Shown: positions 1,662 to 13,894, counted from the stretch's first letter. The stretch is DNA of 64,000 bases from an uncultured cyanobacterium (GCA_963718615.1 OY970368.1:4608001-4672000); one strand, 5' to 3'. Translations and numbers: made by a program. The notes: generated by a model from the sequence alone, not told the origin.

Positions 1662-2083
1662 ATGACGCCGAAAATATCAACCGGCTACACCTGAAGCTAT
1701 TACCAGACTTTCTCTGGCTGCTGTACCAGCGTCTACGGCGGCGGGGTTTTGTGTTGGGTCCGGAGGATTATTCGGCATTGCAGCAGTCGTTGCGGTTGGG
1801 ATTTGGTTGGTCGTCCCAGGGGGCGTTGCGGGAGTTGTGTGGGTCGCTGTGGGCGAAGTCGGTGCGGGAGCGGGAGGCGTTGTTTGCGCTGTTTGATCAG
1901 CTTGTTCCGCAGGAGGAGGGTTGGGAATTTGAGGGGGACGAGGCAATAGGAGATGAGGTAATAGGAGAGTTAGGGGAGGTTAGGACTGAGAGGATTGATG
2001 AGCCAGCGAAATCTGAGGCAGAGACGTTCGGTGTTTTGCTCAACATTCATGCGTCGTTCAAACACGCTACTACGTTCAGATAA
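1658..2083 (+). pseudogene. N-terminal fragment of vWA-type partner of MoxR system, truncated at island edge (~2020)
   Basis: LYQRLRRRGFVLGPEDY...LRELCGSLWAKS resembles N-termini of MoxR-associated vWA proteins; base composition switches near 2030. Confidence 0.5.
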
Positions 2084-2158
2084 CCAAGATCGTGCGGCTA
2101 TTGTATCAGTGCTTACTTATGTACTCTTGTGGAAGTCGCCCGAGAGTAAACATCGCAC

Positions 2159-3196
2159 ATGAAACGATATGCAAATCTACCACTCAGTTTGCCTCGAGTA
2201 GACTTAGGGCTTATTCCTAAGGGATATCAAGGTACCCAAGCAACACTAGCACATATCAAATCATTAATTCGAAAAGGTGCGAAGGACTTCTATGTTCGCC
2301 AGAAGTCGATTGATATTTTGCTAGAAAAATCAGTCAAAGCCAAAGACTACCTTGGAGAAATTAGAGCAATCTTTGAGTGGGTACAAAAAACAATTCGATA
2401 CACGAAAGATCCCTTTCGTGTAGAGATGCTCCACTCTGCTCGGCGTCTATTAGAATTGCGCGCGGGTGATTGCGATGATATGACAATTCTACTCGGTTCT
2501 ATGCTGGAATCCATCGGGCATCCCGTACGCCTAGTCGTAACTGGCCCTGATCCGCTACGGCCTAAACTCTTTAGCCATATTTATCTGGAAGTCTTTCACC
2601 AAGGGCATTGGATTCCACTCGACGCCACGATGCCACATCCTATGGGGTGGGAGCCCAAAACCTTTATTAAACAAGTTATTCATATCGAGAGGAGCTTACA
2701 CATGTTGAATCAACATCAAGAACTGCATAGGTCTACAGATCTATCGTCGCTACCTGATTGGCTAACAAACTTGATTGTCAACATTCACAAGGGAAGTATT
2801 AAGCCCAAAGATCAACGAATTAAACGTTTGTTGGGCTTGCTACATCAACGACAGTTACAGCATCAGAACCGCTGGCTGATAAGAACCTTAGAGTTTATAC
2901 ATCAGCGAGGACTGTCTCACCACCCTCGCCCTGAGCTAGCCAAACGAGTTGAAAATTTGATGCATCACTGGAAAATACTATCAGCAGCATTGGATTCATC
3001 AACATCGCAACAAAATTCCACCTATCCTACCATCACTATTCCAGTTAAATCGGCATCGAAAGCTTCTATAAAAAAGGACAAAATCTTACAGGCAAGACCT
3101 GTCCGCCCTGTAAAAGTTAGCCCTGTTCCAGGGGTGACGGTAAGGCGTGTTGCAACAATCAATCAACACTCGGTTCCATCTCAAAAGCCATTATGA
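2159..3196 (+). CDS. Transglutaminase-like cysteine protease with basic C-terminal extension
   Basis: Triad motifs GDCDD (Cys), FSHIY (His), WIPLDAT (Asp); IFEWVQKTIRYTKDP motif. Confidence 0.8.
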   Translation: MKRYANLPLSLPRVDLGLIPKGYQGTQATLAHIKSLIRKGAKDFYVRQKSIDILLEKSVKAKDYLGEIRAIFEWVQKTIRYTKDPFRVEMLHSARRLLELRAGDCDDMTILLGSMLESIGHPVRLVVTGPDPLRPKLFSHIYLEVFHQGHWIPLDATMPHPMGWEPKTFIKQVIHIERSLHMLNQHQELHRSTDLSSLPDWLTNLIVNIHKGSIKPKDQRIKRLLGLLHQRQLQHQNRWLIRTLEFIHQRGLSHHPRPELAKRVENLMHHWKILSAALDSSTSQQNSTYPTITIPVKSASKASIKKDKILQARPVRPVKVSPVPGVTVRRVATINQHSVPSQKPL

Positions 3197-3549
3197 GACC
3201 TATTCAGAATTCAGGTAACTACGATCGCCTGCTTCCAGCCCAATCAGCCACTCCCAGTAAACTCAATCAGGAAGCCAAGCAAGGAAAAGAACTCTATCGA
3301 AAGTTTAATCACTTCGAGGCATCTCAAACGTTCACAATCCAACATTCTCGGCTGATACCTCCCGTTGTTGTTAGCCTTGGTGAGCTTGTCGGAATTATCT
3401 ACCGATCTGATAAAGATCAACTCGGAAAACCGCAAGTCTATATCCATTTTATGCAAGATCCGCCTCAGTTAGTCAGTAACGTCGAAGGGAGTCAGCTTTA
3501 TATCGTAGGTGGTAGTTATCACATCACTTGTAGAGGCATTGAGGGCTGA
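3193..3549 (+). CDS. Hypothetical protein of putative capsid-like operon
   Basis: ATGA overlap with the upstream gene; beta-rich, ends QLYIVGGSYHITCRGIEG. Confidence 0.7.
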   Translation: MRPIQNSGNYDRLLPAQSATPSKLNQEAKQGKELYRKFNHFEASQTFTIQHSRLIPPVVVSLGELVGIIYRSDKDQLGKPQVYIHFMQDPPQLVSNVEGSQLYIVGGSYHITCRGIEG

Positions 3550-3586
3550 TCTAATCGTTAACTTATAAACCTTGGAGGGAAATTAT

Positions 3587-3868
3587 ATGACATGGGGTAA
3601 GCCATTAGGACTAGATGAGTTGATGATTATCAATCCAGGGCCATCCAATGGGGATGCCTACTTATTGGGCGAAGATGGAACGCTTTACCAGGTTCAGGGA
3701 TTGGGTGAGATAGGCGAATTACCCCAGGATCAACAGTACTTATTGGGTGAGGATGGCACGCTGTATCAAGTTCAGGGGATTGGTCTTGGAGGACGGCCTT
3801 ATCCCCTGTCTGGAAGGCATAGCTGTCAATGTAGAAATCGATCAGCTAGCACTGAAGGTTCCTACTGA
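3587..3868 (+). CDS. Small protein with two YLLGEDGTLYQVQG(L/I)G repeats
   Basis: GGAGG RBS before ATG 3587; internal repeat shared with 4734..5660. Confidence 0.75.
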   Translation: MTWGKPLGLDELMIINPGPSNGDAYLLGEDGTLYQVQGLGEIGELPQDQQYLLGEDGTLYQVQGIGLGGRPYPLSGRHSCQCRNRSASTEGSY

Positions 3869-3944
3869 AAGCTAGCGTTAAGCAGACTGATGATCAATGC
3901 TCACTGACCAACTATAAAGACATTATTGAACAAGGAGTTCGATC

Positions 3945-4694
3945 GTGGGAAAAGTACAAGGTGTTAAGGAAAAGCTTCACTATCCGATTTACGACGCTTT
4001 TTTTGTAAAGGGTCGCCCCTCACCTGATCAGCTTAAAACTGATACCAATAAACCTCAAACCTTCATGGAGGTGATGACTGATCCGAGAATGATCCGTTTC
4101 TTTGTGGATGTTCAGAACAAAACTCGACTGGAAACAAACTTGCAGGCATCGGGTGTTTTGCCTAGTCTCAATACATTTGAGGCTAGGGCTTTACGAGTTG
4201 TCGTTAGTCCACCCTGTTTAGCAGCTCCGCCTACATCAATCGAAAAAGTTCTAGCTATCACTGAATCGTATTGTAAAAACAGTTCTCCAACAGCAGGGAA
4301 GCTTGAAAATGACTCGACAAAAAGAGAACTGTTCGAGAAGCTAAAAAGCGAATATAGTCAATGCAATGGAGACGCTAATCTTGTTCTTTCTGAGTTGATT
4401 TACAACTCCGTGACAACCTTGCTGGTGGGCGAGAAAACTATGATTGAAATGCCGACATACTTCTTTCCGGGTGGTGCCGGTGTTTATCCAGGAAATGGCA
4501 GTATTTCTAATCATGGTGAACCAGATCCTATGGCAACGTTTCGATTCGCTGAACCTGTCATTATCGAGCCTCAGCAAAATTTTCGAGTCGAAATGCTATT
4601 CCCTCAGGGTGTTCCAAAAATTCTGTCTCAAGTCGAAGGTGTATTTAGAATTTGGGTTGTGCTAGATGGTTACTTAACAAGAGATGTACAGTAG
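3945..4694 (+). CDS. Putative single jelly-roll major capsid-like protein
   Basis: AGGAG RBS; beta-strand pattern PIYD...KTRLETNL.SG.LP...F...EPVIIEPQQNFRVEM...IWVVLDGYL; fold is inferred, not computed. Confidence 0.5.
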   Translation: MGKVQGVKEKLHYPIYDAFFVKGRPSPDQLKTDTNKPQTFMEVMTDPRMIRFFVDVQNKTRLETNLQASGVLPSLNTFEARALRVVVSPPCLAAPPTSIEKVLAITESYCKNSSPTAGKLENDSTKRELFEKLKSEYSQCNGDANLVLSELIYNSVTTLLVGEKTMIEMPTYFFPGGAGVYPGNGSISNHGEPDPMATFRFAEPVIIEPQQNFRVEMLFPQGVPKILSQVEGVFRIWVVLDGYLTRDVQ

Positions 4695-4733
4695 GGCTCT
4701 CAATTAGGTCGAAATTATTTAGGAGAGAATACA

Positions 4734-5660
4734 ATGAATCACATGATGGGTACAGGCTATCTCGGCGAAACGAAAATGGGGCCTGATGGCAATCTGTACG
4801 AATGGGTGGAGGGCATTGATGGACTGGGAAATTCGATTGGTTTCTGGAGTAAGTTCAAAAAAATTGGCAAAAGAGCCCTAAGAACGGCTGCTCGCTATCA
4901 TCCTGCTGTTCAAGCATTGAAGCTCGTAAGACGTGGTATTTCTGGCACCGATGGACTAGGGGCTTTGTACCAATCTCCTGATGGTAGCCTCTACCAAATG
5001 CAGGGGCTCGGTGTCGATGAAGAGGGTATGGGTGAAGTCGGTCTGGAAGCAGATGACTTAACTCAAATGATGGGTTTTGGCAGCTATGTGGGTGAAACGC
5101 GCGTAGGGCCTGATGGCAATACTTATCAATGGGTTCAGGGCGTGGATGGTTTAGGCAATCCGATTGGCTTTTGGAAACGCTTTAAACGGTTTGCGCGTAA
5201 GGCAAGACGCTTTGTCCGTAAGGCGTTGCCAGTTGTGCAACAGTTTGCCCCCCTTATTCCTGGCGGAGCGGTGGTGTCATCAGCACTGAGAACTGCTACG
5301 CCGTTTCTTAGACGGGCAGGAGTGGCGGGCGATGGCTTGGGTGCCCTATACGAGGCTCCAGACGGAACCTTGTACCAAATGCAGGGACCAGCAGATGAGG
5401 AAGCCATGCAAGGATTTGCCGAAGATGAGGACATGGCGGGTTTTGCTGATGAAGAGTTACAGGGGTTTGCCGAGGATGAAGAGATGGCGGGCTTTGCCGA
5501 AGATGAAATGGGCGAGTTTGCAGATGATGAGGTCTTGCAGGGCTATGTTCGGCAGGATGGCATGGATGGATTAGCAGCCTATGTACCACAACAGCCACAG
5601 AGCACACCTTGGTATCAACAACCCAGTCAAACTCCCAAAATTTGGGAAGCCCCCTGGTAG
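4734..5660 (+). CDS. Repeat protein with GLG motifs, two cationic amphipathic helices and acidic GFA(E/D) repeats (putative internal/scaffold protein)
   Basis: Duplicated module Y(L/V)GET..GPDGN.Y.WV.G.DGLGN.IGFW + basic helix + DGLGALY..PDG.LYQMQG; acidic tail repeats. Confidence 0.75.
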   Translation: MNHMMGTGYLGETKMGPDGNLYEWVEGIDGLGNSIGFWSKFKKIGKRALRTAARYHPAVQALKLVRRGISGTDGLGALYQSPDGSLYQMQGLGVDEEGMGEVGLEADDLTQMMGFGSYVGETRVGPDGNTYQWVQGVDGLGNPIGFWKRFKRFARKARRFVRKALPVVQQFAPLIPGGAVVSSALRTATPFLRRAGVAGDGLGALYEAPDGTLYQMQGPADEEAMQGFAEDEDMAGFADEELQGFAEDEEMAGFAEDEMGEFADDEVLQGYVRQDGMDGLAAYVPQQPQSTPWYQQPSQTPKIWEAPW

Positions 5661-5734
5661 AAGAACGATAGAAGAGTTTGTGAGCGACTTATTTCTATCC
5701 AGAAAGCACTGAGAAATGTAACGAGGTCAGTTCC

Positions 5735-6484
5735 ATGCAATTTCAGCCAGCTCCAACCCAGATGAGGCGGGCATCCCCTTCTATGACAGGGGGAATAGCA
5801 ATGCCTGTTGATGGCCCAACAACGAAGGAAATTCCCTATGATTATGTAGCAAAGTTTGCGCTTCAAGGGAAGGCTGCCAATCGAATTCAGGATGTTATCA
5901 ACATTAGTGTTGAGGGCTCTTTTGTAGCGACGGCGATCGCCTACAGTTTCATTCCTGCATCGCTACCGATCAGAAATCGTATACTGGAGCCAACTCCCTC
6001 ACCAGAGCCAACTCCCTCACCAGAGCCTATTGTAAGAGAAGTTCCTCCTGAGAGGAGGAGGGATTCAAATCCTCTGCTCGCGTTACTCGAACCTTTCGTA
6101 ACATCCTCCCTGATTCCGCAGAATACTCCGACGGAAAGCCAGAGGAAGCAACTCGAACTTCGGCAGAATCAGCAGCTTGAATTGCTGCAAATGGTTGCTG
6201 AATGTTCGCTGATTAAATTATGCGGCATTCACTTTAAATACAGCATTGTAGATAGTGGCAGCGGTCGAGAGTTGCAAAATCAACCGATTCACAATATTGC
6301 AGGATTAGGAGAGTCGGGGGGCGACAGGCCCTTCCGCCCCTTGGCTAAGCCGATGATGTTTATGCCGCGCTCAACTATCCGCATTGAAGTTGAGGAGATT
6401 TCCGAAGGGCCACTCTATGCTGGGGCGGAACTCTATGTCGTCTTGCATGGTTATAAGATGCTGGGTTATGGCACGGGGGTGTGA
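5735..6484 (+). CDS. Second putative jelly-roll capsid-like protein
   Basis: Beta-rich: INISVEGSFVATAI...IVDSGSGRELQNQP...PLAKPMMFMPRSTIRIEV...LYVVLHGYK; C-terminal strand parallels WVVLDGYL of 3945..4694. Confidence 0.5.
   Translation: MQFQPAPTQMRRASPSMTGGIAMPVDGPTTKEIPYDYVAKFALQGKAANRIQDVINISVEGSFVATAIAYSFIPASLPIRNRILEPTPSPEPTPSPEPIVREVPPERRRDSNPLLALLEPFVTSSLIPQNTPTESQRKQLELRQNQQLELLQMVAECSLIKLCGIHFKYSIVDSGSGRELQNQPIHNIAGLGESGGDRPFRPLAKPMMFMPRSTIRIEVEEISEGPLYAGAELYVVLHGYKMLGYGTGV
5986..6028 (+). repeat. 18-bp tandem repeat encoding EPTPSP x2 inside CDS
   Basis: gagccaactccctcacca repeated twice. Confidence 0.8.
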
Positions 6485-6942
6485 TGAGTCTTTGTCAGGT
6501 TTGTGGTGTTCCTCTAGATGCGGACTATTTCGATAGTGCGAGTATCAAGCCTGCTCCTCAAAATGTGGGTGAAGAGGTGGAGTTGGCTCAATATCATCTA
6601 CATCCTCAATATTGTGGGGCTTTGCTCTGCTTTGCTCAGTATGTCAAACCTGAGGATGAGGCTTTGGCAAATAGCAATATTTTGGAAACGCCTGGGTATG
6701 AATGGGCTGTGCTTTGCAATAACCAAGCCCGTGATCCCTATCTGCCAACGAATCTCATCTTAAATCCTTGGGGACAAAACAATTTGCCTGTTCACTTGCG
6801 ATTGGAGGAGGGCTGTGTGGTGAGGTTGGTGGTACGTAGGGTGTCAGCTTCACCGGAACCGATGCTGCAAAAGGTGGGGGGGCGGTTGCAAGGTCGCTAT
6901 TGGTACAACACCAATTATGGTGGTTTGCCGAATCGCTTATAG
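6484..6942 (+). CDS. Small beta-rich protein, putative minor capsid/penton-like, N-terminal CxxC
   Basis: TGATG coupling; PVHLRLEEGCVVRLVV...VGGRLQGRYWY. Confidence 0.5.
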   Translation: MSLCQVCGVPLDADYFDSASIKPAPQNVGEEVELAQYHLHPQYCGALLCFAQYVKPEDEALANSNILETPGYEWAVLCNNQARDPYLPTNLILNPWGQNNLPVHLRLEEGCVVRLVVRRVSASPEPMLQKVGGRLQGRYWYNTNYGGLPNRL

Positions 6943-6969
6943 ACACTGAATCACAAGAGAGAAAGAGAG

Positions 6970-8544
6970 ATGTATATCTATACTGACAAGCCTTTATCGG
7001 GAATTGAGGAGCCGTCAGTAGGGCTAGCGGGAGATCTCACAGAAAATTTCAACTTAAGTGAGTTTGCCTCTCGGGGAACGCCTGTACCTGCACAGTATCT
7101 CAGTAATGTGAATCGCTTGGCTAAAAATCTACAAGCTCTCAGAAATTATTTGGGAAAGTCAATTCATATTAATTCTGGATATCGTACACTAGCTCACAAC
7201 AGTAGTGTGAATGGGGCGACAACGAGTCAGCATTTACTAGCCAAGGCAGCTGATATTACCGTCAAAGGCATGATTCCAAGTGAGGTATATTGTGCCATTG
7301 AAACATTAATTGCCAATGGCCAAATGCAGCAAGGTGGATTAGGGCTTTATGCCACGTTCGTACATTACGACGTGCGAGATGCCAGAGCTCGTTGGAAAGG
7401 TAAAGGGTCTCTGGTGCCGAGTTGTGGACTCACACCTACAAAAACAATAAATACATTAGATCTGGAAAAAGCCGTTATAAAAAACAGCGAGTGGAGCCAA
7501 AAGCTGGGTTGGTCAGCCTATCTCGGCGCAATTATGGCCTTGGTAGGATATGTGCCATTGCCTTTTCCTAGTCTGAAAAACTTTGCAGAGGCGATCGCCC
7601 GTTGGCAAAGTCATCAAGGATTACTGCCCGCAGATGGCATAATTGGACCTAAAACTTGGGAGAGAATAAAAAAGAATACTCAAATACAACAACCTTTACC
7701 AATCAATCAAAAGCCAGCTAGATTAAGTATAGATCCTGAGACCCTTGAAAAGATTGGTCAATACGCCTCAATTATTGAACGAATTGCTCGCGATAAAGAC
7801 GTTGATCCAAGCATCATAAAAGGCATTATTGCAGCAGAATCAGGAGGTGACCGCTATAAAGAAGCGCCTAGTGGATATAAAGGCTTAATGCAAGCAAAAA
7901 AAACAACAGATCAATTTGAACCTGAAATTAGTATTCACGATGGAGTTGAAAAATTCAAGAAATTTAGAGAAAACTGGCTAGGCCCTCGACTTAAAAAGCT
8001 TGGGATTGATTTGAACGTTCTGGACAAGAAAACCATGGTTGCTTGGGTCACTACAGCTTACAATGCTGGTCATGTGACTGTTCTAAAAGCCGTGGAATAT
8101 GCTACGGCTTCAGGCGATCCTAAAAATTGGATGGCTCCAGAACATTATCAGCGAGCATTAATTTTTTCTGGAGGATACAGTATAAGCACTGCTAAGAAAT
8201 CTTTCTTTAAAAAATTGAGTGAAATTGAGTTAGTGGAAGAGGTAGCAAGGATAAAGCATACGAACATAAACGATCTTCAGAAAGGATATTCTTTTTCAAA
8301 CAAATGGGACATTGAGAAACTCAAGCAAGTCCTCATTAAAGAGGCCGCTAAGGAACAGAAACATTGGAAATTTAGCGGGAAAAAATGTCAATGGTGGCAA
8401 TGCCCTGATCCACCTTTGCTACAAGATATTCGCAGGCATTCATCTCGTTTATTGCTATATGCGGTTGAATTTAAGCGCGAAAATACTCCCAAGTACACTG
8501 GCAAAATCATCAAATATATGAATTATTACGATAAAGCAGATTGA
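6970..8544 (+). CDS. Multidomain peptidoglycan hydrolase: peptidase M15A + PG-binding + lytic transglycosylase (SLT-like)
   Basis: INSGYR..HN....SQHLLAKAADI...FVHYDVR (M15A); WQ..QGL.ADGIIGPKTW (PG-binding); IIAAESGG..GLMQ..AYNAG (SLT). Confidence 0.85.
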   Translation: MYIYTDKPLSGIEEPSVGLAGDLTENFNLSEFASRGTPVPAQYLSNVNRLAKNLQALRNYLGKSIHINSGYRTLAHNSSVNGATTSQHLLAKAADITVKGMIPSEVYCAIETLIANGQMQQGGLGLYATFVHYDVRDARARWKGKGSLVPSCGLTPTKTINTLDLEKAVIKNSEWSQKLGWSAYLGAIMALVGYVPLPFPSLKNFAEAIARWQSHQGLLPADGIIGPKTWERIKKNTQIQQPLPINQKPARLSIDPETLEKIGQYASIIERIARDKDVDPSIIKGIIAAESGGDRYKEAPSGYKGLMQAKKTTDQFEPEISIHDGVEKFKKFRENWLGPRLKKLGIDLNVLDKKTMVAWVTTAYNAGHVTVLKAVEYATASGDPKNWMAPEHYQRALIFSGGYSISTAKKSFFKKLSEIELVEEVARIKHTNINDLQKGYSFSNKWDIEKLKQVLIKEAAKEQKHWKFSGKKCQWWQCPDPPLLQDIRRHSSRLLLYAVEFKRENTPKYTGKIIKYMNYYDKAD

Positions 8545-8723
8545 AGAAGGAAAATACGTACTAGAACAGACACAAAGTAGTAAGCAGGCTAAATATCATC
8601 AGGAACTCGAAAAAACAGCATCTTGATGTCAAAATTAGTGCTCTGAGAACCGAGCGTCGTCGAAGTCTATGCTTGCAGGCATGCTATTAAATTGAAAATT
8701 AGTAAGAGGTTGTAAACCTTGGC

Positions 8724-9653
8724 ATGTACATACTATTGGGACACAAATCAGCGGGAAATCAGTTAGCAGGACTTGGGCAAACGAAAGTAGTAGAAACTCA
8801 TTCACAAAGCTCAACCTCAGCTTTGACTTTAGCTGTCCCTAAAATGGTTAAAGTTGCCGAAACCTCTCCTTCGTTCAGTACTCTATACGTTGGGATTGAT
8901 CTGAATCCCGTTTGGGAAAACCGGAAAATTGATGGCAAATGGAAGCAGACTCGTGCCTATGCCTCACCCATGACGGGCATCTTCATTCCTAAAACCTATA
9001 TCCCTCGATCAACCGTCAACTTGATCTTGTATCTACATGGGTTTAAAGCGCCTTGTGGACTCGATGAAAAAGCGACGATTAACCAATACTGGAGCCAGGG
9101 TTACTTTAAATGGCTAAGAGAAGCCGTTAATGATAGTGGCCAAAATGTGATTCTTGTTGCACCAACATTGGGGCCTAGATCAGGTGCAGGCAAATTGATT
9201 CAATCGGGAGGATTCAATGCGTTTATCGATCAAGTTTTAGCGGCTCTCAACGCCTACAACCCGCTCAACAAAATTCCTTTTATTAATCGATTTACTCGCA
9301 ACCAATCGATAGGCAATATCATATTAGCTTGTCATTCTGGCGGTGGGAAACCAATGCGGGCGATCGCATCTCTAAATCCTAGTACCGACAGCTATGCCGC
9401 CCAGATCAAAGAATGCTGGGGCTTTGACTGCTTGTATAGCGGAGATGACGCCAACGCATGGCGCACATGGGCAAGCGCCCATCCCCAATCCAAACTTTTT
9501 GTCTATTACAAAAATTCTACCCATCGACAATCGGAACAGCTTCGAGACCAACGCCCTCACCTTAGTAACGTCTTTGTTCAAAAGTCCAACGCAAAGAATC
9601 ACTGCTCTGTTCCCAGTCACCATTGGAAAGAACGTCTTGTAAACATATCGTAG
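8724..9653 (+). CDS. Alpha/beta-hydrolase fold protein
   Basis: LILYLHG, nucleophile elbow ACHSGGG, GFDCLY, late His in NHCSVP. Confidence 0.7.
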   Translation: MYILLGHKSAGNQLAGLGQTKVVETHSQSSTSALTLAVPKMVKVAETSPSFSTLYVGIDLNPVWENRKIDGKWKQTRAYASPMTGIFIPKTYIPRSTVNLILYLHGFKAPCGLDEKATINQYWSQGYFKWLREAVNDSGQNVILVAPTLGPRSGAGKLIQSGGFNAFIDQVLAALNAYNPLNKIPFINRFTRNQSIGNIILACHSGGGKPMRAIASLNPSTDSYAAQIKECWGFDCLYSGDDANAWRTWASAHPQSKLFVYYKNSTHRQSEQLRDQRPHLSNVFVQKSNAKNHCSVPSHHWKERLVNIS

Positions 9654-9665
9654 GAGAGCATAAAT

Positions 9666-10493
9666 ATGTATCTATTAACAGATAAACAGATGGATGGACT
9701 AGGTAAATCTGCAAGCCCTATTGATTTAGAACATGCAGTTCAACGCAATCTTCACTATGGGAAGGTGCTTCAGTGGCAGCCTAAACTAGGCGCTATTATG
9801 CGCCTAGTCGATTTTTCGCCTCGGCTTTCTGGACTGATTTGGGAAAATTTAAAGAGCTTTGCTGAGGCAGTGGCTAAGTGGCAGCAGGAACAACGGATAT
9901 CGCCACCTGATGGCATTATCGGGCCAAAAACCTGGGCGAAAATGCAGCTTCTGATTCCAGATACTATCCAGCCTGCGCCATCTGCCCAACCCTCTGGGTC
10001 TTTAAATTTAATTCCCTTAGAGTCACCAGGCGGTGGTCGTCTTAAAGACAAAAGTGAGCTAAAGGCATCTGATCAAGTTACCTTTAAACGCTATACCGGA
10101 ACAGAAACGGTGCCGCTTCATCGCCTTGCTGCCTCGGCTTGGGCAGCTTTGATTAGTGCAGCGCGGATGGATGGGATTGCTGAGCCCTTGTTACTACCGT
10201 CGTCGGGCTATCGTTCCGATCAAAGACAAGCCAAAGCATGGGCAAAAGCGCTCAAAAAGTATGGCACTAAGGAACTAGCCAGAAAGTGGGTCGCGCCACC
10301 AGGCAATAGTGCTCATCGGACGGGGCGGGCGATCGATTGTTGGCTCGGCCTGCGCAACGGTAGTGAAAATGTGACTAAATTGCGTCGGCAGCCTGCTTAT
10401 CAGTGGTTAGTGAAAAATGCTTCCCGATTCGGGTTTTATCCCTATTCAGCCGAACCTTGGCATTGGGAATATAATCCGCCTAATCTAGGCTAA
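9666..10493 (+). CDS. PG-binding domain + peptidase M15B (VanY-like D,D-peptidase)
   Basis: DGIIGPKTW; SGYRS..Q, APPGNSAHRTGRAID, EPWHWEY. Confidence 0.85.
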   Translation: MYLLTDKQMDGLGKSASPIDLEHAVQRNLHYGKVLQWQPKLGAIMRLVDFSPRLSGLIWENLKSFAEAVAKWQQEQRISPPDGIIGPKTWAKMQLLIPDTIQPAPSAQPSGSLNLIPLESPGGGRLKDKSELKASDQVTFKRYTGTETVPLHRLAASAWAALISAARMDGIAEPLLLPSSGYRSDQRQAKAWAKALKKYGTKELARKWVAPPGNSAHRTGRAIDCWLGLRNGSENVTKLRRQPAYQWLVKNASRFGFYPYSAEPWHWEYNPPNLG

Positions 10494-10608
10494 CACTGTC
10501 TATTGTGAGTCTCTAATGGATATTAAAGAAGGAATATTAGAGAAGCGATATTAGAGGTCTACTATCGGCTTGGCTAGATTACCCACGCCATTCTCCTGGT
10601 ACAGTGCA

Positions 10609-11511
10609 ATGAAGAACCTTTTCCCAAACCTATCAATTCATTTGAGTCAGCGAAAAGGGGCTTGCGCGCTCGATCCCAGCTTGTTTCTCTCCCACTATGG
10701 CCTGTTGCTGGTTCAATCGTTAGGAGAAGCGGTGGAACTTTGGATAGCGCGAGAATTATGGCATATTCTAGATAGCCCTGAATTTTATCTCAACCACCCA
10801 GAGCCGATTGCCCCCCAAACCAGCTTTGTGCCTCTTATCGGGACTCAAAAAGAAACGTATCAACGACAAGCTCAGAAAAACCGTGTGCAGGTACTTCAGC
10901 ATTGGCAGTCCTATCGAGCGAGAACCCCTCCAACCCAGCTCAACCTATGTTGGCTCGGCGATAAACCTGGAGAGTCTTACTTGCCAGACGGAACCGACCC
11001 AAATCTGATAGAGCATTGGGAAATATTAGCGCGATCGCTCGAAGCCCACGCCCCACAGAACACCCCTAGACTCGAGAATCCACTTACACCCGCCTTCCGA
11101 GACACTGCCGCCCTCGCTGCCGTTTTGGGGTCTGCCTTCATCCTCACGCATCAGACCTCAGATAGCCAAGAAACAATAGACACATCCCCAGAAATTTGCC
11201 AGGCACTCGAAGCATGGGGGATTCCATGCCACAAGATTGATCCTTTAGATACCATAGCTGCTCTAGAGCGAGACTATCTACTTCGGTTAATTATTGATAC
11301 AGGGTGCTCAAAACTTTTATGGGCAGGGCTAAACTTAGTCGTATTGCACTTAGTTGTGCCCCCTGTTGTTACTCCTTATCGTCAGGATCACTATCCGTGG
11401 AACACACATTCTTTACTGAAAGGGTGTGATTCAGAAAGACTAACGTGCATTGTTAATCCTTGGGAGGACGCACGAGGCTTCTGGTATGAGATCTCAGCCA
11501 GCTCAGCCTAA
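10609..11511 (+). CDS. Hypothetical protein upstream of LuxR regulator
   Basis: Long ORF (start 10570 or 10609); CALDPSL...ELWIARELWHILD, possibly degenerate PIN-like. Confidence 0.65.
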   Translation: MKNLFPNLSIHLSQRKGACALDPSLFLSHYGLLLVQSLGEAVELWIARELWHILDSPEFYLNHPEPIAPQTSFVPLIGTQKETYQRQAQKNRVQVLQHWQSYRARTPPTQLNLCWLGDKPGESYLPDGTDPNLIEHWEILARSLEAHAPQNTPRLENPLTPAFRDTAALAAVLGSAFILTHQTSDSQETIDTSPEICQALEAWGIPCHKIDPLDTIAALERDYLLRLIIDTGCSKLLWAGLNLVVLHLVVPPVVTPYRQDHYPWNTHSLLKGCDSERLTCIVNPWEDARGFWYEISASSA

Positions 11512-11612
11512 ATGGAAAGTAAGGTACCTGTGAAGGTACTATTCAGTCTTAGTTTTTCTCTCTAGGATCACAAGTATCAAAGTACGATCCTACCTTTAGC
11601 AGGGTTTTTATC

Positions 11613-12074
11613 ATGGGAAAGCAGGCAAGCTTAGATTTAAAGAAGCAGCGAGATCAAAGCTCTATGGCTTCCGCCATCGTAAGTGACTTCTATGTTAAAG
11701 GCCATCACTATTTGGTTGTTGATGGGAAAGGAAAACTTGAGGATGTGGCTGAGCAAGAATCAGGATTTTCTAGTTGTTGTGTAGACTCTATCGTTGCTCA
11801 ACTCCGTTTAAATGGCGAAGACTATGCCGTAATAGAAGTAAGGAGCTACTCTGTAAAAGAAAGCACTTTGGATGCGAGCACTCTTCTAACAGCCCGAGAA
11901 CTTCAGATTGTTCAATTGGTTGCGAAAGGATACGTTAACAAGCAAATCGCTCATCAGCTACAAATCAGTGAATGGACCGTTTCAACCCATCTTCGCCGAG
12001 TCTTTGCAAAGCTAGGCGTTGATAGCCGTGCTGCAATGGTCTACTCAGTACTCTGTCAAGTTAACCTTCCCTGA
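11613..12074 (+). CDS. LuxR/NarL-family HTH transcriptional regulator without receiver domain
   Basis: LTARELQIVQLVAKGYVNKQIAHQLQISEWTVSTHLRRVFAKLGVDSR. Confidence 0.9.
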   Translation: MGKQASLDLKKQRDQSSMASAIVSDFYVKGHHYLVVDGKGKLEDVAEQESGFSSCCVDSIVAQLRLNGEDYAVIEVRSYSVKESTLDASTLLTARELQIVQLVAKGYVNKQIAHQLQISEWTVSTHLRRVFAKLGVDSRAAMVYSVLCQVNLP

Positions 12075-12279: not shown

Positions 12280-12433
12280 CACGCGCTGCCTCACCAGTGA
12301 CTTGAAGTTGATACAACATCCAAGTTTGAATCAACTCCTGCTCCACAAACGCAGCCTTCCCCTGAACCGCATACTGCTCAATCTTGGCGATCGCCTCAGC
12401 CATATCCTCCAGCTACTCAATATCCCGCCTCAC
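12280..12433 (-). pseudogene. HepT/DUF86 toxin, amber stop at codon 7 and 3'-truncated
   Basis: Manual translation MRRDIE*LEDMAEAIAKIEQY...ELIQTWMLYQLQVTGEAAR; GTGA overlap with MNT gene. Confidence 0.75.
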
Positions 12434-12840
12434 AACGCCACCGCCTCCCCCAACACCTCCTCCCGCACCGACTCCCGCAACTGCTTCGCCACCACCACAT
12501 CCACCCGCCGTCCCAACAACGCCGACAAATCCCGCATCAGCTCCACCGGAAACCAAGGCTTCGTCACCCCACAAACATCCACCAAAAAATCCACATCACT
12601 ATCCGCCTGAGCCTCCCCCCGCGCCACCGAACCAAACACCCGCACATTTCCCACACCGTGCTCCTGAGCCAGCGCCAAAATCTCATCCCGAAACGCCAAC
12701 ACATCCTCCAGCCGATACCCCACCCGGTTCTGAGGCGTGGGCCAATCTGCTAGCCACTCCAAATGCTTCACCAGCCGCAGAATGTCATCCCGAGATAGAG
12801 ATTCCGCCTGTTGTAAGATTTGTTCTAAAGCTGCGCCCAT
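12430..12840 (-). CDS. Minimal nucleotidyltransferase (MNT) antitoxin
   Basis: VRVFGSVARGEAQADSDVDFLVD. Confidence 0.85.
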   Translation of the reverse strand: MGAALEQILQQAESLSRDDILRLVKHLEWLADWPTPQNRVGYRLEDVLAFRDEILALAQEHGVGNVRVFGSVARGEAQADSDVDFLVDVCGVTKPWFPVELMRDLSALLGRRVDVVVAKQLRESVREEVLGEAVAL

Positions 12841-12892
12841 GCTGCCGACCTGGTAAGGGGGTGTTCTACTATTCTAAATTCTACATTTACCC

Positions 12893-13894
12893 ATGGAACT
12901 GACCGGAGCCCAACTTGCTCAATTCCAACAAGCCCTGCTCAGCGCCTTCCCCAGCAAAGCCAAGCTGGCGCAGATGGTCAGTTTTCACCTTGATGAGAAT
13001 TTGGATGCGATCGCCGGAGGCCAAAACCTCTCCGACCTCACCTTCAGCCTACTCCAACACCACCAAGCCCACGGCACCCTCGACCAACTCCTCAGCGCAG
13101 CACTCACAGAAAACCCCAATAACCCAACCCTACAAGACTTTGCAAGAGCACTCCAGAATCCAACCCCAAAACCAATACCCCCTAACGCAACCAGCACAAC
13201 CTTCACGCAAACCAGCTCCGGCGGCACCAACTTCCAAACCCAAGTGACCGGCGGACAAGTTCATCAAGCCCAGACCATCAATATCTACCACGGTTCTACC
13301 CCGCCCCACGACACAGCCTCACCCCGCGAAACAGCTCAAACTCCCGGCTACACCGAAAACGATCCAGCCCGCCGATATCTCAATAACGTTCTCAAAAAAC
13401 TCACCCAAAACGGCGCAACCACTCTCCCTTTAAGCGAAACCAACTCCACCCTCGATCTCATCGCCAAAATCACCGATTTCGAACCCGGTCTCGGCATGCG
13501 CGGCGACGCCTTCTTCCTCTTCGCCAGCTTCGACAGCCTCACCCCCGCCGGACTCCGCACCTACTCCGCCCAGTGCCTCAACCTCGCCCAAAGCTACCCC
13601 ACCTCATCCCCCGGACGCGCCATTTTCAACTTCCGAGTCCCCACCCGCTGCTGTTTCTCCGTCGCGATCGTCCAACAACTCGACAGCACCACCGCCACCA
13701 CCATCCGCAACAACAACCCCTTCAAAGATGCCGTAGACGTACTCTGGTACGAAATTCCCGTCATCTTCGACCTCAGTCAACGGCAACTCGTCTACTATCA
13801 AGCAGCCAGCGATTTCTGGGAGAACTTTCGCGGCGAAATTGCCTGGAAAAAACTGCGAGAAACCATTCAGCAACTTCTAGATTCTCAAGGCTAA
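12893..13894 (+). CDS. EAD1 (effector-associated domain 1) protein with unknown C-terminal domain
   Basis: N-terminus MELTGAQL..FQQALLSAFP....L.QMV.F.LDENLDAIA...L..A..ENP.N is EAD1-like. Confidence 0.75.
   Translation: MELTGAQLAQFQQALLSAFPSKAKLAQMVSFHLDENLDAIAGGQNLSDLTFSLLQHHQAHGTLDQLLSAALTENPNNPTLQDFARALQNPTPKPIPPNATSTTFTQTSSGGTNFQTQVTGGQVHQAQTINIYHGSTPPHDTASPRETAQTPGYTENDPARRYLNNVLKKLTQNGATTLPLSETNSTLDLIAKITDFEPGLGMRGDAFFLFASFDSLTPAGLRTYSAQCLNLAQSYPTSSPGRAIFNFRVPTRCCFSVAIVQQLDSTTATTIRNNNPFKDAVDVLWYEIPVIFDLSQRQLVYYQAASDFWENFRGEIAWKKLRETIQQLLDSQG

Follow-up and report, generated by a model that had tools for sequence, protein, structure and literature searches.

Three consecutive genes (positions 6970 to 10493) in a 64,000-nucleotide stretch of DNA from an uncultured cyanobacterium (GCA_963718615.1 OY970368.1:4608001-4672000, hereafter the window) start with a short leader peptide of the form MY[IL]...GLG and lie immediately downstream of a set of seven co-directional genes. 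The leader exists, is modular and selected at the level of the peptide, and is tied to the seven-gene module across phyla. We consider it moderately probable that the leader is an address which couples variable cargo proteins to an assembly made by the products of the seven core genes; of the events that such a system would entail, we infer docking, processing, particle formation and release. Positions are counted from the first nucleotide of the window, and genes of the window are on the plus strand unless stated otherwise.

The leader follows a conserved seven-gene core in many phyla

In gene order, the core consists of a transglutaminase-fold (TGase-fold) Cys enzyme of 345 amino acids (aa) (2159-3196; Pfam Transglut_core, E 1.7e-12), a conserved protein of 118 aa without a family match (u118, 3193-3549), a small repeat protein of 98 aa (rep98, 3572-3868), a predicted jelly-roll protein of 249 aa with a long helical-hairpin insertion (A249, 3945-4694), a repeat or scaffold-like protein of 308 aa (rep308, 4734-5660), a second predicted jelly-roll protein of 249 aa (B249, 5735-6484) and a conserved protein of 153 aa (u153, 6481-6942). 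The repeat proteins were recognised by sequence, the jelly rolls in AlphaFold2 (AF2) models, and u118 and u153 through open reading frames (ORFs) in homologous loci. A scan of one genome per species yielded 53 loci in which the order TGase-u118-rep98-A249-rep308-B249-u153 recurs, in records naming at least 11 phyla. These records come from Cyanobacteria, Nitrospira/Nitrospiraceae, Alpha-, Beta- and Gammaproteobacteria, Chloroflexi, Acidobacteria, Gemmatimonadetes, Rokubacteria, Actinobacteria (Mycolicibacterium vaccae, Kribbellaceae and Acidimicrobiia), Brevibacillus, Armatimonadota and Verrucomicrobia. Among the genera in the record titles are Brevibacillus, Mycolicibacterium, Nitrospira, Methylomonas and Leptolyngbya, whose envelopes are of different types. 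Identity among A249 proteins of different phyla is 38-80%, and the A249 family comprises 2,308 database proteins, none of which has a Pfam domain or an informative name.

Beyond the gene for the 153-aa protein, gene content varies from locus to locus, and yet the genes nearly all start alike, with leaders such as MYIRTNEGLGQ, MYLRTAEGLGQ, MYIKTNEGLGQ, MYMRTRDGLGR and MYLRTAGLGQ. The leader described for the window in an earlier note is thus kept in homologous loci, where its absence would have refuted that note's interpretation, and it is a real modular peptide outside the catalytic domains and marks a variable set of proteins adjoining a conserved set of probable structural genes. Its distribution was counted in the 45 loci with a definable core end, using ORF sites of at least 80 aa in 297 kb of downstream and 273 kb of upstream sequence. 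ORFs were called mechanically without a gene finder, and any that lay over 100 codons beyond the stop before them were discarded. Of sites with an M[YF][ILVMF] start, there were 116 on the plus strand downstream of the core, as against 14 on the minus strand downstream and 11 and 13 on the two strands upstream. For the stricter pattern MY[ILVM]x(1-12)G[LIVM][GAS] the count was 42 downstream on the plus strand and 0 upstream, with 2 downstream on the minus strand and 2 inside or before the core. Both minus-strand hits belong to a Mycolicibacterium locus (L037) and look genuine, while the two in the core region are the small repeat protein itself and the ORF that precedes the TGase gene in locus L041. 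After filtering, 104 ATG-started MY[ILVMF] ORFs remained downstream of the core in 39 loci; among the 39 loci with at least 3 kb of downstream sequence, 35 hold one to six ATG-started tagged ORFs. These counts are a lower bound because GTG and TTG starts are missed by an ATG-only scan, as in the Brevibacillus locus (L047), in which MYIRYTGALGQ is present yet scored 0.

Leader consensus and selection on the peptide

The modal leader among the 104 ORFs is MYIRTxEGLGQ, with a canonical length of 11 residues. Position 3 is occupied by I (46), L (27), V (17), M (11) or F (3), and the other modal residues are R4 (30), T5 (36), G8 (43), L9 (40), G10 (42) and Q11 (32). GLGQ is the commonest form of the terminal box (20 occurrences), and LGQ occurs inside the first 30 residues in 39 of the 104. 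The spacing from MY to GLG varies among leaders. The leader is often followed by a Pro/Ala-rich linker, Pro reaching 10.4% after the leader vs 6.2% in the rest of the protein. Of the 104 starts, 91 have a Shine-Dalgarno-like motif in the 20 nt before them. Tyr2 is encoded by TAT in 54 cases and by TAC in 50, while G8 and G10 draw on all four Gly codons; since synonymous codons vary freely, selection acts on the peptide.

Codon choice at some other leader positions is less even. Leu9 is nearly always TTA (22) or TTG (12), whereas Leu3 takes CTN codons; Gln11 is CAA in 21 cases vs CAG in 11, Glu7 is GAA in 19, and Gln11, Glu7 and Thr5 favour A-ending codons. An A-rich codon bias at the 5' end is widespread in genes generally, and the A-ending codons of the leader may represent this usual bias for weak mRNA structure.

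The three leader-bearing genes of the window

Leader 1 (MYIYTDKPLSGIEEPSVGLAG, 6970-7032) heads a 524-aa protein with Peptidase_M15_3, PG_binding_1 and SLT transglycosylase domains (cargo 1, 6970-8544; Pfam, and phrog_894 endolysin at E 3.7e-32), and its PHROG endolysin match starts only at residue 22. Leader 2 (MYILLGHKSAGNQLAGLGQ, 8724-8780) heads a 309-aa protein without a family (cargo 2, 8724-9653), and leader 3 (MYLLTDKQMDGLGKS, 9666-9710) a 275-aa protein with PG_binding_1 and a VanY-type peptidase domain (cargo 3, 9666-10493; Pfam VanY, E 1.9e-22). The gaps between the three genes are 180 and 12 bp, and the window shows no sign of immunity genes next to them.

The N-termini quoted for these genes in the earlier note are an exact reading of the plus strand, and its statement that the three enzymes lack a Sec signal agrees with the hydropathy of their first 35 residues, in which the highest Kyte-Doolittle mean over 10 residues is at most 0.89. 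The twin-arginine (Tat) motif RR is absent from the three leaders, and no 19-residue window exceeds 1.6 on the Kyte-Doolittle scale in any core or cargo protein, which leaves no transmembrane or Sec-like segment. The description of the three enzymes as unrelated needs correction, as cargo 1 and cargo 3 share homologous PG_binding_1 domains and the catalytic domains of both are named by Pfam as M15-type peptidases. For cargo 2, nothing was found in Pfam (nothing meaningful even at E <=1) or among PDB sequences with phmmer; its homologues are often fused to PG_binding_1/3, VanY or Peptidase_M74 in precomputed Pfam annotation, and these fusions make it probably peptidoglycan-related. Cargo 3 gave weak VanXY/LdcB-type NCBIfam matches below the cut-off. 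Judged by their sequences, all three cargoes look peptidoglycan-related.

The whole genome (6.1 Mb) has 6,826 first-ATG ORFs of 100 aa or more; MY[ILVM] heads 17 of them, and three of the 17 are these consecutive genes; the expected number of runs of three such starts is ~1e-4. The pattern MY[ILVM]x(1-16)(GhG|LGQ|GhA[GQ]) has six sites genome-wide, three being these genes and two being internal; the last one is the start of an ORF of 490 aa, by eye a candidate glycogen synthase. The leader-motif scan for orphan cargo that the earlier note had proposed therefore found none in this genome, as the three remaining sites are the two internal ones and the putative glycogen synthase ORF. Related proteins carry similar starts: the Leptolyngbya JSC-1 counterpart of the leader 3 protein begins with MYVLTDEGLGQ, and the closest homologues of the leader 2 protein begin with MYILIGEGIGLGQ and MYILTGERLVGLGQ.

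Tagged proteins and an apparent exchange of leaders

A Pfam scan covered 103 of the 104 tagged proteins, one ORF that runs off locus L038 having been dropped. The families found include Beta-lactamase2 (6), Aspzincin_M35 (6), OmpA (5), Trypsin_2 (5), PG_binding_1 (3), Trypsin (3), Amidase_2 (2), Patatin (1), Lipase_3 (1), GH75 (1), Peptidase_M14, Peptidase_M91 and others, and the majority of the 103 proteins have no Pfam family. The largest tagged family has 52 members of ~281 aa in 32 loci (e.g., L004:17110-17955), with an HExxH motif (LHEGVHLFAHP). No member lies in the window, and the family has no match in Pfam (nothing meaningful at E <=1) or among PDB sequences (phmmer); from its motif, it may be a near-core metallopeptidase.

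The leader is an add-on outside the catalytic domains: when the 120 best homologues were taken for each protein, an MY[ILVMF] start was seen in just 2 for the VanY cargo and 6 for the 309-aa cargo. Another conserved N-terminus, acidic in character, is found on many of those without the tag, for example ...QWLFEAPF, ALFEAPLAHE or FNPEPFE. In three metagenome loci (L113:1629-11738, L131:1094-10927 and L136:2721-11705), two to four consecutive genes with ...(W)LFEAP(F/L) starts follow a different, unannotated gene block. Two of the ORFs with this second, unrelated leader in L113 carry VanY and M15_4 plus PG_binding_1 (Pfam), and the domain of the 309-aa type is present as well. No gene of this conserved block has a Pfam family, and YSNPE/FEDEWE repeat proteins are among the products; an M20 peptidase (Pfam) is next, and then an ORF that is by eye a putative amidohydrolase. 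No homologue of the 309-aa cargo with a leader of the LFEAPF type was found in 400 other sampled genomes of the same phylum as the window. Hydrolase domains thus appear, from these sequences, to be re-addressed by swaps of short leaders between at least two unannotated systems. This apparent swapping of leaders on the same domains is our strongest indirect argument for regarding the leaders as addresses.

Repeat proteins and the shared box

The small repeat protein rep98 (41 ORF matches in related loci) contains LGLDELMI(I/V)NPG followed by hairpin-like [YF][FL]LGxDGxLYxxxG repeats. The echo of the leader that had been pointed out in this gene is real in the copy of this genome, which has the exact form YLLGEDGTLYQVQGLG, but it is not enriched in the family, where the loose pattern Y-h-x(2-12)-G-h-G occurs 2 times vs 2.2 in shuffles. 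In the rep308 family, the same pattern was observed 66 times vs 6.9 +/- 2.8 in shuffles. The rep308 protein has two modules of the type GxDGxLYx[YW]VxGxDGLGNxIGFW, then basic helices and a Gly/Ala-rich hydrophobic stretch, and ends in a long acidic (EDEEhxGh)n / (EDEELRGL)n tail with an invariant C-terminal W(K/E)(P/A)(L/P)W (WKPLW-type). The spacing of its [YW]V[QE]G[VI]DGLGN motif equals that of the canonical leader, Y-h-x3-[DE]-G-L-G-[QN]. The pattern [YWF]h-x4-GhG[NQ] has 64 sites in 43 of the 55 rep308 family members and 9 sites in 1.71 M residues of the genome's ORFs; preceded by Met, it heads 14 of the 104 cargo proteins. One cargo (L021:16664-17344) combines an MY start (MYVWKKDGLDH...) with a full module of the rep308 type (GEVRLGQDNRLYRWVAGFDGLGNPVGFW) and an M15-like end.

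A related box is found in one of the jelly-roll proteins. In most non-cyanobacterial loci (L012, L013, L016-L018, L029-L031, L043, L046, L048 and L049), B249 starts with MRxGL[GS]Q, followed by a Pro-rich linker of low confidence before the jelly roll. This GLGQ box resembles that of the cargo; the B249 of the window starts with MQFQPAPTQMRR instead.

Two predicted jelly-roll proteins

The AF2 models of A249 and B249 (predicted local distance difference test, pLDDT, 72.2 and 75.7, respectively) are both beta jelly rolls with a long helical insertion, so that a jelly-roll fold is well supported at the level of the models. Structural matches were ranked with the exhaustive aligner VIA-align. The matches of B249 include peptidylglycine alpha-hydroxylating monooxygenase (PHM, 5wm0_A; Z 9.5, root-mean-square deviation (rmsd) 3.2, 116 residues aligned), the SPV1 capsid protein (6oj0_T; Z 9.4, rmsd 3.3, 133/178 aligned), the coat protein of satellite panicum mosaic virus (1stm_A; Z 9.4, rmsd 3.5, 124 aligned), VP17 (3zmn_A; Z 8.8, rmsd 3.9, 119 aligned) and VP16 (Z 7.8) of P23-77, and proteins of HCIV-1 (Z 8.4) and HHIV-2 (Z 7.7). 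A249 matched an Orf virus scaffold of the D13 type (9ikc_A; Z 7.8, rmsd 4.8, 144 aligned), SPV1 (6oj0_T; Z 6.8, rmsd 3.7, 137 aligned) and satellite panicum mosaic virus (Z 6.6), and many of its matches aligned to the helical insertion alone. The weak top rows of A249 in Foldseek were the SPV1 and SH1 capsid proteins (E 0.06-0.3). In the ESM Atlas, the clusters nearest to B249 are unnamed and virus-rich (0.97, 0.97 and 0.96), and the nearest named ones carry PM2 P2_N/P2_C at just 0.75; recognition was low, and we treat both results as leads.

A profile of B249 found 428 clusters in a library of 1.84 billion proteins. Among the best 150 representatives, 68 are at least 380 aa long, and among the first 40 inspected, those of ~420-550 aa are tandem doubles with two full B249 domains (e.g., P0241, P0242, P0247-P0249 and others). 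In three loci (L045, L050 and L053), a double B249 stands beside a second, shorter B249 match and a longer A249. A particle or shell is plausible because capsid proteins are among the best structural matches of the jelly-roll models. According to PMC8812541, some viruses have a pair of capsid proteins, each a vertical single jelly roll, that heterodimerise, and a fusion of such pairs into double jelly rolls has been proposed. A capsid link would fit, since two different jelly-roll proteins share one operon here, as in these viruses, and tandem fusions exist; the relationship of A249 and B249 to capsid proteins is a hypothesis.

Several observations weigh against a virus. Scans of IMG/VR with the A249 and B249 alignments gave pattern matches, none of which encodes a relative, and a tblastn search of GenBank phage records with A249 was negative. 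Sequence clustering of the flanks of the 45 loci (with Pfam on part of them) shows no recurrent ATPase, replication or integration family, and Pfam finds no ATPase in the cluster of the window. Together with the identity of A249, which is unusually high for a capsid protein, the lack of such relatives and of recurrent ATPase, replication and integration genes argues against a virus.

The TGase-fold enzyme and the small core proteins

The TGase-fold enzyme belongs to the Transglut_core family (48 bits vs a Pfam cut-off of 23), and across 31 homologues its Cys (GDCDD), His (sHIY) and Asp (LDAT) motifs reach a conservation of 90% or more. Among solved chains, 3isr comes closest; it is titled 'putative cysteine protease' (E 0.015). 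The other six core proteins (u118, rep98, A249, rep308, B249 and u153) have no match in Pfam, NCBIfam, PHROGs or PADLOC. In u118 (39 ORF matches in related loci), a C-terminal block GELVGxxYR...QLYIVGGSYrvTxrGIEG is conserved, and u153 (49 ORF matches) has conserved CxxC, NPWG and VGGRLLGRxWYN motifs. The ESM Atlas neighbours of u153 are unnamed clusters alone, which again serve as a lead.

A possible mechanism

If the leader is an address, MY[ILVM]...GLG(Q) would be an N-terminal sorting or assembly tag, grafted onto polymorphic and horizontally shuffled hydrolases, and the seven upstream genes would make the soluble assembly to which the tag couples its cargo. The jelly-roll pair A249 and B249 would form the structural body, with rep98 and rep308 as scaffolds. 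The tag may use the binding site of the scaffold, an idea suggested by the identical spacing of the rep308 motif and the tag. The TGase-fold enzyme would act on the GLGQ box, either by cleavage or by an isopeptide cross-link through the Gln; it is the obvious candidate because it has a conserved triad and its nearest solved relative is a putative cysteine protease. The loaded assembly would form in the cytoplasm, be freed by lysis and act outside the producer. Release by lysis rather than by secretion across the envelope is suggested because the cargo acts on envelopes and the system is soluble and occurs with one as well as with two membranes. More specifically, the core might build an undescribed, horizontally mobile particle that carries no genome, with a shell of two capsid-like single jelly rolls, double-fused in some lineages, in which an 11-residue tag mimicking the scaffold loads a changeable set of cell-wall, lipid and protein hydrolases, to be released against other cells; we offer this fuller picture tentatively and regard it as rather unlikely as a whole.

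Several results weigh against the address and the particle. The three leaders of the window are divergent, and one alone scores with the canonical position-specific scoring matrix (PSSM), which was built with fixed spacing from 39 canonical leaders. Scanned with this PSSM at a score of 8 or more, rep98 (1 hit in 3,964 positions) and rep308 (2 in 15,990) show no enrichment over the background (28 in 553,146), and because the rigid PSSM misses the repeat proteins, mimicry of rep308 by the leader is no more than suggestive, at the level of a five-position pattern. The frequencies of M1 and Y2 in the consensus are fixed by construction, because the 104 ORFs were chosen for their MY start. In the GLGQ box, Gln is a preference and not a fixed residue (position 11 has it in 32 of 104), which weakens the idea of cross-linking and makes cleavage the more likely action of the enzyme. 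Z scores of 6.6-9.5 are middling, and PHM, nucleoplasmin, GOLD domains, carbohydrate-binding modules and Ena pilins score equally well. For neither the A249 nor the B249 model did Foldseek return a PDB entry at E <=1e-3, and for B249 against BFVD it returned weak, generic jelly-roll rows (best E 8e-4, template modelling (TM) score 0.25). The similarity between A249 and B249 is marginal (BLASTP E 0.11; hhalign E 0.0076, probability 5%), and no gene for lysis or release is evident in the module.

Other explanations of the leader

The leader might instead be a propeptide, a cleavage site or an N-degron-type instability signal, with Tyr exposed once Met is lost, for the TGase-fold protease, by which lytic enzymes made in the cytoplasm would be kept latent or short-lived until activated and nothing would be packaged. 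A conserved papain-like Cys/His/Asp enzyme does head every locus, the solved chain closest to it bears the title 'putative cysteine protease', and a GLGQ box is also found at the N-terminus of B249 in many loci, as would be expected of a common processing site; the lasso-peptide B2 proteins set a precedent for transglutaminase-fold leader proteases (10.1101/2022.04.06.487251). We nevertheless hold this explanation to be improbable, since it leaves the constant company of two jelly rolls, two repeat proteins with motifs resembling the tag and two small proteins unexplained, non-enzyme cargo of 110-125 aa is also tagged, and an extension of 11 residues is short for an inhibitory propeptide. Somewhat less credible still is an export signal for an unrecognised secretion route, with core genes that encode or assist a secretion device and not a particle. 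The substrates of the cargo are extracytoplasmic (peptidoglycan and lipids) with no Sec signal on the enzymes, and polymorphic arrays of effectors with N-terminal tags typify secretion-linked conflict systems (PMC3482391). Against this stand core proteins without a transmembrane segment and the same soluble core in organisms with one and two membranes; moreover, no ATPase or channel family is recurrent in the flanks, whose recurrent families are, by sequence clusters, cargo and probable regulators.

It is very improbable that the 5' end of these genes is selected at the nucleotide level, for translation initiation, regulation or as a handle for swapping cassettes, and that the peptide has no function. 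The leaning of the leader towards A-ending codons (Leu9, Gln11 and Glu7) and the difference in cargo complement between loci would agree with such selection, but the even split of Tyr2 codons, the use of all four Gly codons at G8 and G10, the choice of I, L, V or M with many codons at position 3 and the variable spacing between MY and GLG point to conservation at the amino-acid level. Chance likeness of three N-termini deserves next to no credence. The leaders in the window are short and differ among themselves in the spacing from MY to GLG, as coincidence would allow, yet the low genome-wide expectation for a run of three, the same start on 104 ORFs in 39 loci and the absence of strict hits upstream of the core refute it.

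Comparison with known systems

The earlier note had likened the leader to encapsulin cargo-loading peptides and to leaders of extracellular contractile injection systems (eCIS). The analogy stands at the level of function and fails at the level of membership, as no HK97-fold, sheath, tube or baseplate family is found in the cluster proteins. Encapsulin/Linocin_M18 shell families in particular are missing from the 10 cluster proteins in Pfam and NCBIfam. Encapsulins take up dedicated cargo, whose gene adjoins that of the shell, by means of a short linear tag into a shell of viral origin (PMC7925596, PMC8346489), and the targeting peptides described in PMC7925596 are C-terminal. The cluster resembles encapsulin systems in its short tag and in the placement of cargo genes next to candidate shell genes, but the tag is N-terminal and not C-terminal, the candidate shell proteins are predicted jelly rolls and not of the HK97 fold, and there are up to 6 cargoes per locus.

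Cargo enzymes of the Pdu and Eut bacterial microcompartments (BMCs) carry N-terminal encapsulation peptides, which are amphipathic helices. Both kinds of peptide are short N-terminal extensions with a poorly conserved linker, on unrelated enzymes encoded beside core genes; the present one differs in being Gly-containing with a Met-Tyr-aliphatic start and in serving envelope hydrolases and not a metabolic pathway. BMC-H (PF00936) and BMC-P (PF03319) are absent from the cluster proteins (Pfam). The effectors of eCIS and of Photorhabdus virulence cassettes (PVC) have N-terminal loading signals, are loaded in the cytoplasm and form a swappable cargo. An N-terminal non-Sec leader on diverse enzymes and cargo genes downstream of structural genes are common to those systems and ours, whereas our leader is far shorter and its consensus is sharp. 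Pfam, NCBIfam and PHROG show no sheath, tube, baseplate or AAA+ ATPase families among the cluster proteins, and the sole 'tail' PHROG matches fall inside the VanY and SLT enzyme domains.

Polymorphic toxin systems are described as secretion-linked conflict systems with arrays of N-terminally tagged effectors (PMC3482391). They share with the present loci a constant N-terminal trafficking part, a variable catalytic part, downstream arrays and a patchy, horizontal-looking distribution, but are large multidomain proteins with cassette tips, whereas the loci contain separate full genes with an 11-residue tag. The capsids of the Helvetiavirae (SPV1, P23-77, HCIV-1, HHIV-2 and SH1) are built from two vertical single jelly-roll proteins, which are among the best structural matches here, and the loci encode two different predicted jelly-roll proteins of ~250 aa in one operon, with fused tandem forms; the loci differ in having no recurrent packaging, replication or integration genes, and the fold match is no better than that to PHM. 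Among the lasso-peptide B2 proteins there are leader proteases with a transglutaminase fold (10.1101/2022.04.06.487251). As in C39 and lasso B2 leader peptidases, a Cys/His/Asp enzyme is encoded here with substrates that share an N-terminal leader and a small-residue box. The substrates of those peptidases are peptides, though, and here are whole enzymes of 100-580 aa with a G-L-G-Q box in place of a GG at fixed distance; no C39 domain, ABC transporter or RiPP recognition element (RRE) partner was found by Pfam in the cluster or the flanks in the window. PADLOC, with its models of anti-phage defence systems, gave no match for any core protein and matches at the level of the helix-turn-helix (HTH) alone for the LuxR-type regulator of the cluster. 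A search of full texts, which does not extend to supplements such as the PMC8812541 datasets, found no description of the gene cluster, of its motifs or of a jelly-roll compartment with tagged cargo. The system belongs to none of the microcompartment, encapsulin, eCIS or polymorphic effector classes, from which the tag also differs in position and sequence; the idea of a cargo tag is itself already known.

Genomic setting of the cluster

The twelve co-directional genes on the plus strand between ~2159 and 12074 form a compositional island, the GC content of the gene block (2001-12000) being 0.40-0.51 vs 0.51-0.58 in neighbouring intervals. Among 400 further genomes sampled from this phylum, not one has an A249 gene, so that the system is rare there, and its absence from these genomes together with the low-GC island suggests, on sequence grounds, that the cluster was acquired horizontally. 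Downstream of the third cargo gene and still in the island (GC 0.455-0.49), a 313-aa protein without a family match in Pfam or PADLOC (10570-11511) co-occurs with a LuxR/GerE-type HTH protein (11613-12074; Pfam GerE, E 5.3e-19), the probable regulator of the cluster. A homologue of the 313-aa protein takes the same position in L025, with a LuxR-type gene next to it, and the edge of the cluster holds a LuxR-type homologue in L002, L003, L025 and L037. Recurrent flank families of ~457 aa (19 loci), ~123 aa (9 loci) and ~311 aa (9 loci) are regulator-like by eye, and occur in L004, L007, L011, L020, L035, L039, L040 and others; in cyanobacterial loci, a LuxR-type gene is found there.

Upstream of the island, Pfam identifies a UPF0175 antitoxin-like gene (923-1174) and an apparently split DUF3368 (PIN-like) gene (1167-1346 and 1386-1661), of which only the second part (1386-1661) has the Pfam match. 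Beyond the island lie an NTP_transf_2 nucleotidyltransferase gene on the minus strand (12430-12840; Pfam) and a gene (12893-13894) whose 333-aa product carries an Effector-associated domain 1 (EAD1; E 1.1e-22) at its N-terminus. The genes at 12430-13894 are probably unrelated to the cluster.

Implications

If the leader is an address, it would represent a new form of bacterial protein sorting, in which over 100 unrelated proteins, from 11 or more phylum-level groups, bear the same 11-residue N-terminal tag, linked to an apparatus with at least five of its seven proteins outside any described family. Encapsulins and microcompartments, the cellular shells known so far, are built on other folds. 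A jelly-roll-based protein assembly in cells would bear on the exchange of capsid-like proteins between viruses and cells (PMC8812541). Should the tentative picture of a loaded particle be true as well, the system would correspond to encapsulins but with jelly rolls, and would amount to an 'enzyme bacteriocin' particle without a tail, whose loading tag is short and probably transplantable. A tag so short and with so sharp a consensus would be attractive for loading foreign proteins, and the tagged proteins without a family form a pool of candidate new lytic enzymes.

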